A stretch of 64,000 bases of DNA from IMG/VR virus record IMGVR_UViG_3300011115_000650. One strand, written 5' to 3'. Under the pieces are notes generated by a model. It did no database searches. It saw only the letters and a list, made by a program, of their open reading frames with translations, and was not told where the DNA came from. Source of the stretch: a virus. Made by a program: the position numbers and the translations under genes. Positions 11,826 through 41,593 of this stretch are shown in pieces (position 1 is the stretch's first letter; every line of letters starts with the position of its first letter).

Positions 11826-12038
11826 TTAAACCGTAGGTACATCCTCGGCAAAGAAGTTAGATAGAAACTTAGCCAGTCCAGCTACAATCAACACCCCTAC
11901 AGCAATATTTTTATAATCACTAGCAAAGCTGATAGTTGATACCGTCATCGCACCTGCTAGTAGAGCATCTGCAGTACGGCGTATTCCCTTTGGTGTTGGT
12001 TTCCAGTAATAGAACCATCCGAATTTTATTTTGTTCAT
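11826..12038 (-). CDS. Small 2-TM membrane protein (holin-like)
   Basis: Two hydrophobic segments; CTATTTAT motif upstream. Confidence 0.55.
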   Translation of the reverse strand: MNKIKFGWFYYWKPTPKGIRRTADALLAGAMTVSTISFASDYKNIAVGVLIVAGLAKFLSNFFAEDVPTV

Positions 12039-12065
12039 AGTAAGTCTATTTACAATAAATAGTAC

Positions 12066-12094
12066 AAAAAAAGGTAACCATTACTGATTACCTT
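12066..12094 (-). terminator. Intrinsic terminator of the tRNA/tmRNA/HEG transcript
   Basis: AAGGTAATCA-GTAA-TGGTTACCTT hairpin followed by a T run. Confidence 0.8.
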
Positions 12095-12116
12095 CTAGTG
12101 GAGACTTACAATAGGG

Positions 12117-12734
12117 CTACTTTACTTTTTTACCTCTTACCCATCCTTCAGGTACTGGATCATCTTTTGTTATCTTTCTAACCTCTACTCCATTTGTGAT
12201 GTATCTTACACCGTACTGAGAGTTTAACACTCCTTTCTGTTTTAAAGCGTTTGCTAATCCGATTTTCTTTTTCGTCTCTTCTCTATGCTTCCTACCTATC
12301 CAGTTTGGTACTGTAGGTTTACGAGTTCCACTTTCGTAAAGCTTTTTATTTCTTTCACTACATATTTTGGAAAACTTTTCTTTGAAGACCGGGTCTTTTA
12401 GTTTCTCTTTAAACCCTCGAGTAGCAGCTAAGTGTGCTCCACCTACACCTCCTGTTTTTAAATTCATACAGTTGAGATCTTTCATTAGATCGTCATTAAC
12501 AAGTTCTTTCTCTCTCTCAGCTAACTCCTCACGAGTGCTATAATACTCTAAAATTTCACATTTAAAATTAGATTTACCGTGCTTTCTAATAGCTCTTCTT
12601 AATCTTGTACCACTTCCAAGATAACCATCTTTTAAATTTGAAGTAGAATGCATTCCTACATAATACTCTCCGTTTAAAAGATTGGTTGTCTTGTAGATGA
12701 AGTGATGTTTTTTACTTTCATTGATGTTTGCCAT
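12117..12734 (-). mobile_element. GIY-YIG homing endonuclease (Seg-like, NUMOD3) at the tmRNA 3' end
   Basis: FIYKTTN...YYVG...YLGSG...F..EIL; GRKHREETKKKI; probable ATG at 12734. Confidence 0.88.
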
Positions 12735-12778
12735 ATCTATCTTTATAATAAATAGTACAAAAGTCAAAAAAGTGCCCG

Positions 12779-13326
12779 AGGAGATGACGGGAGTCGAACC
12801 CGTGTCTTGATATGGAAACGTAACACCAACGTCTCACACGCTTAGCTACTCTGTTCTACTCAGAAGCAGGAGGTAGATCTAGGGTGGAATGCTTATCTCA
12901 GCAGCAGACGTACGAAACGTTCCCTTGATTAGTAATGGGACTGTAGTGGTAGCTACAGTAGGTCCACCACTTGGTTGATTCGGGTTCAACCAAGAAAACC
13001 TTTAGAGATCACCTACCAAAGGTAAATGATTAACTCAACCGCCCCGATTACACACATTCTTGACGGGGATCATTCCAACATTGTGACCACTTTACGGTAG
13101 TTGGATATGCAAATTTTGTAACTATTCTGTTCCAAGGTCAGTCACCAACCTGAAGATTACGCTGCTACAGCAACTGACTCGAAAGCCATGTTGATGATAG
13201 ATGCACCGATTTCTTGACGAGATGTTTTTTCTGCGTTTATTGTTTTACAAGTATTTAAGGACGTTCATGCTTTGTCCGCGTGTGGTGCTACCCTTCTGCA
13301 TACCAATCAAATGCCAGGACATCCCC
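12779..13326 (-). ncRNA. ssrA: tmRNA, ~548 nt, tag AEKTSRQEIGASIINMAFESVAVAA*
   Basis: 5' GGGGAUG pairs with 3' CAUCUCC including G3-U70; T-arm GGUUCGACUCC; resume context AAUAAAC|GCA; tag ORF 13157-13234 ends in AA. Confidence 0.93.
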
Positions 13327-13338
13327 ATATTATTTTAG

Positions 13339-13437
13339 TAGTCAGGACAGGATTCGAACCTGTATGAAATATCTTAGGCATGTTTCTTCGCGTTTAATAC
13401 TTCTCACCGTGTGCGTCTACCATTCCGCCACCTGACT
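13339..13437 (-). tRNA. Atypical Leu-like tRNA shell with non-canonical anticodon/variable region
   Basis: Acceptor AGTCAGG/CCTGACT, D-arm GCGGAATGGTAGACGC and T-arm ACAGGTTCGAATCCTGT present; central ~48 nt form no standard anticodon stem. Confidence 0.6.
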
Positions 13438-13499: not shown

Positions 13500-13576
13500 T
13501 AGTCAGAGCCGGACTCGAACCGGATAAGTAACCATTACTGGATTCGGAACCCGTTCCTCATTACACCCATCTGACT
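13500..13576 (-). tRNA. Atypical tRNA-like gene (possible anticodon CCG on a short stem)
   Basis: Acceptor AGTCAGA/TCTGACT, T-loop GGTTCGAGTCC; weak D arm; GGG-TTCCGAA-TCC. Confidence 0.5.
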
Positions 13577-13694
13577 ATCATTAAAAGGTAATGGAAGTTC
13601 CTCGACCTCTTCCTAAGTTCAGTACCTTTGTGCCCTGCCCTTTGTTTTACACCTCTTTAAATAAATATAAGTACTTTACTTCGACTTTCCAACT

Positions 13695-14117
13695 TTAGTC
13701 TACAATAGTTTCCATTGTATGTGGTACAATCCATCTAATACAGTCCTGAGGTAATCTATTGATGTGTTTGTAGTTATTAATGTATCCCATCATATTAGCC
13801 GACCCTATTGCATTAGCACTATGTACTTTAACAGTTACTACCGGTTTGCCTTCTAACCATTGATCAACTAACCACTTAGTACAGTCCATACCTGTCTTCT
13901 CAGTTATGTTATCATAGTCTAGAGTGTAGTTGTGATAGACATTTGTATGCCATTCCTTCATTGCACTATCTCCTAAATCATGATCTAGTGAAATTAGTTC
14001 GATATTTTCTAGTCCTATCTCGTTGATAGTATCTACAAATTCATCGTAATTACGAACCACAATCCACTCTTGATCGATTGGTGTTCTTAGATCGTCTAAG
14101 TATATTAACTTTTTCAT
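13695..14117 (-). CDS. Cyclic-phosphate-processing receiver-domain protein
   Basis: YLDDLR, ISLDHDLG, TG.DC..W and VHSAN motifs. Confidence 0.78.
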   Translation of the reverse strand: MKKLIYLDDLRTPIDQEWIVVRNYDEFVDTINEIGLENIELISLDHDLGDSAMKEWHTNVYHNYTLDYDNITEKTGMDCTKWLVDQWLEGKPVVTVKVHSANAIGSANMMGYINNYKHINRLPQDCIRWIVPHTMETIVD

Positions 14118-24104: not shown

Positions 24105-24929
24105 CTAATCTACAAACATCCAATTGTATTTATTTGAGTTGCATCTGTAGTTAACTAATCCTCTCGTAATACCAAAAGCTTTTGCTGCTTCCTGACCTGT
24201 TTGATAGAGAACACCATCAGCTTTTACTTTCTTGCTATTTGAAGGCTTGATTGTTCTAGCATTAGCGTACTCTCTAAGCTTCTGTTTAGTTTCTTCCGTA
24301 TGGGTCTTTCCGTAAAATGGATTGTTAGCTCCTGACCTATCTCTACATTTACCGCAAGCTTTAGACGTCGGATCTATTCTTGCTCCACAATCACAAAAGG
24401 TACGTCCTCCTTTCCAATTTGGATTATTATCACCTTCATAACTTCGACGATTATTCGTACACCTCTCGATCAACTCGGTTGGCTTTTGCTTGCCTTTCCA
24501 GTACCCTTCCTTTCCATACATTCCATTATTCTGTCCTCTAACCTTAGTAGACCTCTCCTCTCGCTCTTCTGCTGATAGAGAATCCCAATACTGCTTTGCT
24601 GTTATTGATTTCTTTTCAAGGTACTCCGGATCGGTGTAGTTGATAAAACTAGAGGTATCACCACCGGTTCCTCCTTCAGTTAGGTTGTATCCGTTTTCGA
24701 TAGCGTTCTTTTCTTTAATCCAGTAAACCTCTCTACTGTTAAGATCTTCCTTATCTATACACTCTTCTAAGATACACTTTGTAAAATTCTCTAGCCCATA
24801 CTTCTGTATAGCTGCTTTGATTAGCTTGCCACTACCAAAATACGAATCGAAGTTAGATCCGCTATACTGTCCAATGTACATTTTTCCATTGAGATTATTT
24901 TTAATCTCGTAGACTATAAATCTTTTCAT
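24105..24929 (-). mobile_element. GIY-YIG homing endonuclease with NUMOD3 repeats
   Basis: IVYEIKN...MYIG...YFGSG, GYNLTEGG, NPFYGKTHTEETK. Confidence 0.9.
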
Positions 24930-40807: not shown

Positions 40808-41530
40808 TTATTTTTTTAATTTTAAAGTTTCTATATTCTCTATACTCCAATTAGATATCTCCGATATTGTATATACGGCGTAACCAGCTTCTTTAAAAGT
40901 CTTACCTATGTGTAGTCTATCATGTTCTTTTAATTTATGGCTAGTAGCTGCTACTGCTACCGGCGTTATTATTTTACTCGAATTCAAACACCTCTTACGT
41001 AACGTACTCATATCGATACCTATACTTTTATGTGCAGTTAGTAAAGATGAGAAATTTCCTATTGGGGTTATGTAAATGTATTTAGCTTTTCCCCCCACTC
41101 TTAAAGGGCTTTCTTGAAACTCTACTACAGTGCAAGAACCTCTAGATCCTGTTGCTAAATCTAAGTAACTTACCGTTCCTGCAGGAGAAGCTCTCTTGAC
41201 CCTATTCCGTAGCTTAACTTTCAACTCTACTAACTGATCTGCTTCTAATCCTCTGTACGTATTTCCCCCTTCACCACCAGATGCTATGTTATAAAACTGA
41301 GAACTTTCTACTGCGTTTAACAGCTTTATCCACTTTATTTCGCCTTTTCGAGTATCCTCAACATTAATATACCTCTCCAGTATAATTCTAGTAAAGTTAT
41401 CAGCACCATACTTTTCGATAGCTCTTTTTAGTAACTTACCTGAGCCTATGTAGTTATTTGATTCTGGACCTTCGTATTTTCCTATATAGCTCTTACCGTT
41501 AACTAAACATACTGTTAAATATACAAACAT
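40808..41530 (-). mobile_element. GIY-YIG homing endonuclease
   Basis: FVYLT...SYIG...YIGSG, FYNIASGG. Confidence 0.87.
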
Positions 41531-41593
41531 ATCTTTATTAATAAATAGTGCCGAAGTTAAAAAATAGTACTTCGGTAGTGCTTACCGTATATT

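Follow-up and report, generated by a model that had tools for sequence, protein, structure and literature searches.

A SegB-like homing endonuclease cassette just past a phage tmRNA gene, with an A/T polymorphism at the tmRNA discriminator

The homing endonuclease SegB of phage T4 has a 27-bp recognition site whose core, GGTTCRANTCC, is the T-arm motif, and it cuts tRNA genes at their 3′ end, just after CCAR or about 3 nt further upstream where CCA is lacking. The segB gene showed nearly 100% inheritance in T4 × T2L crosses, and translational occlusion has been proposed for it (Brok-Volchanskaya et al. 2008, PMC2330249). Group I introns are known from the T-loop of tmRNA genes, and those at T-loop subsite 3 have been reported from Bacteroidia only (PMC11915505). 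Islander genomic islands lie at the 3′ ends of tmRNA and tRNA genes, where the gene end is regenerated and a displaced fragment marks the boundary (PMC4383910). Here, we compare with these systems a locus in a virus record of 64,000 nucleotides (IMG/VR IMGVR_UViG_3300011115_000650), the whole of which is called the window below. A further point of comparison is F-CphI at cyanophage psbA, where a free-standing endonuclease and an ORF-less intron reportedly travel together in 'collaborative homing'.

The window encodes a protein that resembled SegB over its full length at approximately 39–43% identity. Its gene likewise starts about 40 nt past a tRNA-type gene and is patchily present among related phages; the T-arm motif published as the target of SegB, which cleaves tRNA genes at the 3′ end, is also found in the window, and a leader hairpin at the start codon is predicted in both systems. 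Unlike in T4, the neighbour and presumed target is a tmRNA gene and not a tRNA gene, the phage is an uncultured freshwater one, 5–7 nt that duplicate the target end remain stranded past the cassette, and cleavage is predicted only. As in the described T-loop introns, a 208-nt group I intron was present in the tmRNA gene of three close relatives (contigs L061, L086, and L087), whereas the window allele is intron-less and the intron and the endonuclease gene lie on alternative alleles. The cassette is similar to Islander islands in being a mobile element at the ssrA 3′ end, in the regenerated gene end, and in the displaced fragment that marks its boundary. It differs from them in having no integrase or att site, in its size (680 nt, a single gene, and a displaced fragment of 5–7 nt), and in the proposed mechanism, homing by double-strand-break repair. 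As with F-CphI, the endonuclease gene stands beside a gene whose alleles may bear an ORF-less group I intron near the likely target; in contrast to F-CphI, the two have never been seen on the same allele in this lineage. No description of a homing endonuclease adjoining a phage tmRNA was found in the literature searched.

The tmRNA gene and the cassette behind it

Relatives were reached by two routes. L061, an IMG/VR contig, was found through the 70-aa gene downstream of the locus, which served as an anchor in the search, and the metagenome contigs L086 and L087 were found through a lineage-specific 22-mer of the tmRNA. Contigs of public metagenome DNA runs (X5, X7, and X8) and of one RNA library (X15) were also used. 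The features of the locus are as follows.

12779..13326, minus strand: phage tmRNA gene, intron-less (Rfam RF00023, 56.6 bits, E 1.6e-19; sequence)
13157..13234, minus strand: tmRNA tag reading frame (translation; 100% identical in L086 and L087)
12790..12800, minus strand: T-arm motif GGTTCGACTCC, which fits the T4 SegB core GGTTCRANTCC (PMC2330249; sequence)
12098..12777, minus strand: 680-nt homing-endonuclease cassette, missing from endonuclease-free alleles, with a possible 1-nt shift of the junction (joint 12097 to 12778 in X5/X8 DNA contigs; L061, L086, L087)
12735..12778, minus strand: cassette leader with ACTTTTTTGA and TTTTGTACTATTTATT, common to the cassettes of L002, L035, and L078
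12117..12734, minus strand: putative SegB-family GIY-YIG homing endonuclease gene, 205 aa, ATG at 12734 (PF01541, PHROG 314, segB homology, alignment)
12098..12104, minus strand: stranded copy of the tmRNA 3′ end, TCTCCAC, with an A-type discriminator at 12099 (equals the native end of L087)
12062..12096, minus strand: native tmRNA terminator, now displaced behind the endonuclease gene (12-bp stem at 12096..12069 and a T run)
11826..12038, minus strand: gene for a 70-aa membrane-like protein with a CTATTTAT-type promoter-like motif

The covariance-model score of the tmRNA gene for RF00023 (56.6 bits) exceeded the gathering score of 47; ARAGORN called neither this gene nor the tRNA-like genes of the window. 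The acceptor strand GGGGATG pairs with CATCTCC and includes G3-U70. The discriminator at 12779 is T, not A73, and no CCA is encoded. The tag frame consists of the resume codon GCA (alanine) and 25 codons in all, AEKTSRQEIGASIINMAFESVAVAA, ending in VAVAA before the stop codon TAA. The pseudoknot region (12874-13113) is a mosaic, with no change in the tRNA-like ends or the tag: L086 is shorter here than the window and L087 by approximately 140 nt, a third variant near the 3′ side distinguishes L087, and a contig of the X15 RNA library shows a further variant that skips 137 nt and carries 56 other letters between.

Upstream of the tmRNA gene, two tRNA-shaped genes (13339-13437 and ~13500-13580) have D and T arms, a common acceptor (AGTCAG./.CTGACT-A), and long non-tRNA cores. 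The cores of the window and L086 were completely different, and metagenome contigs contained many alternative cores at very high depth (joints 13363-13422). A 140-aa protein encoded between these genes and the tRNA array (13695-14117) contains a cREC_REC domain, the receiver of cyclic-phosphate processing (PF20274, E 1.3e-22), and suggests a context of RNA repair.

The protein encoded behind the tmRNA gene has an N-terminal GIY-YIG domain (residues 11-80, PF01541, E 1.3e-6) and matched PHROG 314, 'homing endonuclease' (E 4e-38). A tblastn search gave 38.5% identity over residues 11-205, 95% of the length (E 8e-37), to genes annotated as segB, that of phage PP01 among them, and the identity in a multiple alignment was 42.6%. 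The alignment with PP01 SegB was colinear, with common motif blocks along the whole length, including the C-terminal DNA-binding part; the N-terminal motif block aligned with PP01 SegB and with all retrieved homologues. In PP01, segB lies inside a tRNA array and starts 41 nt past tRNA-Met; in the window, the gap between the tmRNA acceptor and the endonuclease ORF is 45 nt, and the gene stands behind a tRNA-type gene, outside any intron. In a DNA search of a phage database, the endonuclease gene had distant matches only, and no close relative was retrieved. Two other ORFs of the window (24660-24926, which is the thyA-adjacent endonuclease gene, and 41264-41536) resemble the N-terminal 90 residues, that is, the GIY-YIG domain only, at 35–40% identity.

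Homologues with 44–52% identity to the window protein were retrieved from viral contigs of other phage lineages, and each of the eight either followed a tmRNA directly or belonged to a tRNA array. The gene starts 38-39 nt past the tmRNA acceptor in L002, L035, and L040 and approximately 55 nt past the tmRNA in L079, L080, and L081, and it is within tRNA arrays in L078 and L082. In the lineage of L035, comparison with the endonuclease-free L058 and L023 showed that the cassette starts 6 nt past the acceptor and replaces the terminator; A73 is kept in all of these tmRNAs. Judged from homology and position, the cassette appears to be a SegB-family free-standing homing endonuclease that adjoins the 3′ end of a phage tmRNA gene. 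Other phage contigs with a tmRNA contained a GOLLD RNA (RF02032, 279–312 bits) at a distance of a few kilobases from the tmRNA and the tRNA arrays (L002:599-1006, L035:771-1177, L041:7420-7829, L044:9443-9855, and L058:9185-9592); the window contained none at the gathering score.

The insertion point was defined by alleles of close relatives that form a precise empty site. L061 and L086 were 90–99% identical to the window over many kilobases, and for L087 the identity was ~90–95% in the flanks and 88.6% in the tmRNA. In all three, the endonuclease gene is missing, the tmRNA is immediately followed by CTAGAAGG and the terminator, and the sequence downstream in L087 is identical to the window from 12104 to 12040. 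A joint from 12097 to 12778, with 680 nt skipped and an ambiguity of 1 nt, occurred in DNA contigs of both X5 and X8, two runs of separate studies, and here too the terminator lies directly 3′ of the tmRNA. Record 26 of X8 equals the window at 13311..12778 without a difference (534 nt) and continues with 12097..12047 (51 nt on the terminator side). Junction contigs bearing the endonuclease gene occurred in X5 and X7, and contigs of the gene body also in X8. Among further contigs found through the 70-aa gene (L062-L077), no tmRNA was located upstream, and an IMG/VR scan for the tag sequence returned the L061 contig only.

These alleles showed that the cassette, 1–2 nt past the discriminator, separates the tmRNA from its own terminator and is a 680-nt presence/absence polymorphism in natural populations. 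On the terminator side, TCTCC recurs at 12104..12100, twelve bases past the endonuclease stop, and is followed by ACTA at 12099..12096 (TCTCC-ACTAG, 12104..12095); TCTCCAC at 12098..12104 is an imperfect direct repeat of TCTCCTC at 12784..12778. A 5-bp repeat is expected by chance about 0.7 times per strand in 700 nt. The junction is nevertheless real and not a chance repeat, because the insert-free alleles show it: deletion of 12777..12098 (680 nt, 1-nt ambiguity) rebuilds the allele present in relatives.

The initial annotation, made from the window sequence, had described a tmRNA ending in CATCTCC followed by T (confirmed by the sequence and by the RF00023 placement at 13326..12779), the G3-U70 pair (seen in GGGGATG/CATCTCC), a GIY-YIG cassette at the discriminator position (junction 12778/12097), and a return of TCTCC-ACTA with a terminator about 680 nt further on (12104..12096, stem 12096..12069). 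All of these were borne out. It had also pointed to endonuclease-free relatives with ACTA and the terminator directly after the tmRNA as a check, and L087 provided one with CATCTCC-A-CTAGAAGG and then the terminator. Its remark that the neighbouring tRNA-like gene has the same ACTA ending is correct, as that gene (13437..13339) ends in CCTGACT-ACTA, but this carries little weight, the L087 counterpart having ACTG.

An exact 15-mer, TTTGTACTATTTATT, which flanks the endonuclease gene and occurs only there in the window, was considered as the true cassette boundary and rejected. The endonuclease-free alleles place the junction at 12778/12097, and CTATTTAT recurs, with 14 of its 15 copies on the minus strand, and is present in the leaders of homologous cassettes. 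The 15 sites of CTATTTAT in the window (e.g., 12055, 12748, 16840, and 45965; 14 minus and one plus) compare with 8.8 expected in total, and identical 16-nt copies of TTTTGTACTATTTATT lie upstream of both the endonuclease gene and the 70-aa gene. Probably, CTATTTAT is part of a phage promoter.

Two alleles at position 73

In all 60 IMG/VR loci with the exact 22-nt tmRNA 3′ end GGGTTCGACTCCCGTCATCTCC, the next base was A, and a review describes A73 as conserved in every known tRNA-Ala of bacteria, archaea, the cytoplasm, and plastids (PMC9976931). A scan of IMG/VR for any tmRNA end followed by T yielded L084 and L085, both chance matches in high-GC coding sequence. In the lineage of the window, four allele types were distinguished. 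Allele a (L087) has the intron, no endonuclease gene, and A73, and its end CATCTCC-A-CTAGAAGG...TATTTATTGTAAATAG is the sequence found behind the endonuclease gene of the window. Allele b (L061/L086) also has the intron and no endonuclease gene, with T73 (CATCTCC-T-CTAGAAGG). Allele c (X5/X8 contigs) has neither intron nor endonuclease gene and carries T73 in exactly the tmRNA of the window. Allele d, that of the window, has the endonuclease gene, no intron, T73 in the working gene, and the stranded TCTCC-A. Position 73 is therefore shown to be an A/T polymorphism in the phage population, in which U73 circulates with and without the cassette and is not simply a product of insertion. The stranded TCTCC-ACTAGAAGG with the terminator is a genuine native tmRNA 3′ end of the A type.

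It had originally been supposed that the insertion displaced the native 3′ end and thereby produced U73. The displaced end stood up, as the stranded piece matches the native end of L087; the causal part did not, since the endonuclease-free relatives L061/L086 and X5/X8 also have U73, an outcome that the initial annotation itself had named as contrary to its reading. In a modified form, the idea can still be put as follows: the native end was CATCTCC-A-CTAG, the cassette brought the T, and T73 alleles without the endonuclease are secondary, through cassette loss between TCTCCTC and TCTCCAC or through co-conversion of the flank followed by recombination. Such a course would account for the identity of the stranded TCTCC-A-CTAGAAGG with the L087 end, for A73 in 60 of 60 other phage tmRNAs, and for the occurrence of T73 only in the lineage with the window's cassette. 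Markers 1–2 nt from a homing cut are, moreover, normally converted to the donor's sequence. However, endonuclease-free T73 was found in both intron-bearing (L061/L086) and intron-less (X5/X8) backgrounds; a deletion would mostly cross over in the 5-nt TCTCC and leave A73, and only T73 was seen; and the endonuclease-free X8 contig equals the window over 534 nt of tmRNA and 51 nt of the terminator side. We regard U73 as a by-product of the insertion as possible but rather doubtful, and lean towards a T73 that is independent of the insertion in the window, because repeat-mediated loss should mostly give A73, which was unseen in the endonuclease-free, intron-free contigs.

A mature tmRNA with A73 might in principle still arise if, at the RNA level, splicing took out the insert or editing restored the 3′ end, as had also been suggested from the window sequence. 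The sole precedent is the discriminator repair known in mitochondrial tRNAs, and the analysis itself yielded nothing in its favour. The segment 12098..12777 gave no Rfam match at E≤1 and showed no intron structure, the stranded piece consists of TCTCC only, without the T-stem strand, and the continuous tmRNA gene is complete. There is, furthermore, nothing to splice in the endonuclease-free T73 alleles, and the RNA-library contig is colinear over the junction. This suggestion was dropped as extremely improbable.

Another way to read U73, a deviation from a conserved alanine identity element (PMC9976931), is that the tmRNA of this phage is in decay, or that it is hard to charge and titrates SmpB as a decoy, which would leave its discriminator free to drift. 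A tRNA-like-domain-only tmRNA of phage DS6A is mentioned as an inhibitor of the host tmRNA in a report cited in PMC4131195. Against this reading, the acceptor and G3-U70 are intact, the Rfam score is above the gathering score, and the tag frame, the resume and stop codons, and the first ~213 nt are 99–100% conserved where the flanks differ by 4–10%. Across the three aligned alleles (window, L086, and L087), the first ~213 nt including the tag were near-identical, with 99.2% identity and two differences over 252 nt between the window and L086 and one difference in the ~213 nt between the window and L087, and the flanks of the same alleles were 90–96% identical. Because the 5′ part and the tag are conserved while the flanks diverge, the comparison argues for continuing selection on the tmRNA, T73 genomes included, and we consider decay or a decoy role very unlikely. 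Most likely, the tmRNA with U73 still works through G3-U70, perhaps with less efficient charging; its full function is not assured, because A73 is reported to be conserved in bacterial tRNA-Ala (PMC9976931).

As for the origin of the two alleles, the stranded A and the working T of the window may mean that the cassette first entered an A73 allele, with T73 spreading together with the cassette. Two histories fit the four allele types: the cassette first entered an A73 allele, where the TCTCCAC repeat was perfect over 7 bp, and T73 alleles are the target of its homing today, or the T arrived with the cassette and spread by recombination or cassette loss.

The T-loop intron and the proposed route of homing

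In L061, L086, and L087, the T-loop of the tmRNA gene is interrupted between GGGTT and CGAATCC by a group I intron of 208 nt without an ORF (RF00028, 55.7 bits, E 2.1e-13; L061:328-535), which is identical in L086 and L087. Its site corresponds to the point after 12797 in the T-arm motif of the window, so that at the DNA level the intron divides the SegB-type core. As read here, the exon joint GGGTT|CGAATCC would place the intron at loop subsite 3, which may give a hint at the host.

In our view, a SegB-family cassette with its own leader was very probably inserted between the tmRNA gene and its terminator and spread by homing. Like SegB, the enzyme would probably recognise the T-arm motif GGTTCGACTCC of the tRNA-like domain and cut the 3′ edge of the gene in genomes without the cassette, as extrapolated from a homologue of ~40% identity. 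Counted from GGTTCGACTCC, the cut calculated for a SegB-type enzyme in the absence of CCA falls just after position 74, which is the start of the cassette. In a co-infected cell, repair from a cassette-bearing genome would then introduce a copy of the cassette; the tmRNA gene remains continuous.

Since the tmRNA and the endonuclease gene are not separated by a terminator and the native one follows the latter, the two are probably co-transcribed. The tmRNA would be freed by normal tRNA-type 3′ processing, followed by CCA addition. A contig of the X15 RNA library, from a diverged relative, runs colinearly from the tmRNA body through T73 into the start of the endonuclease gene; as transcript evidence this single contig is weak and could derive from DNA, and the X15 data, available as contigs only, gave no cover over most of the endonuclease gene. 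A hairpin is predicted over the start codon in the leader (-11.3 kcal/mol, z -2.48), and this modelled structure echoes the translational occlusion proposed for segB.

Every endonuclease-free allele seen carries a change within the presumed 27-bp target, namely the intron (L087), T73 (X5/X8), or both (L061/L086), and the intron and the endonuclease gene were never seen together. Selection for cleavage resistance is suggested by this pattern rather than shown. The stronger proposal, that the tmRNA 3′ end is the site of an arms race with a SegB-like endonuclease in which U73 and the intron were selected as cleavage-resistance variants, seems to us unlikely; if it were true, the phage would be protecting the gene at the cost of an alanine identity base that is nearly universal.

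The locus would extend the T4 SegB model, in which the universal T-arm serves as a landing pad, from tRNA genes to the tmRNA gene of phages in several uncultured lineages. Alleles with and without the endonuclease gene coexist in the same lakes, and the natural U73 and A73 tmRNA alleles of one population offer a ready test of the weight of the discriminator in charging in vivo. A single T-arm that is taken alternatively by an intron or by an endonuclease cassette would provide a compact system for the study of competition between selfish elements.
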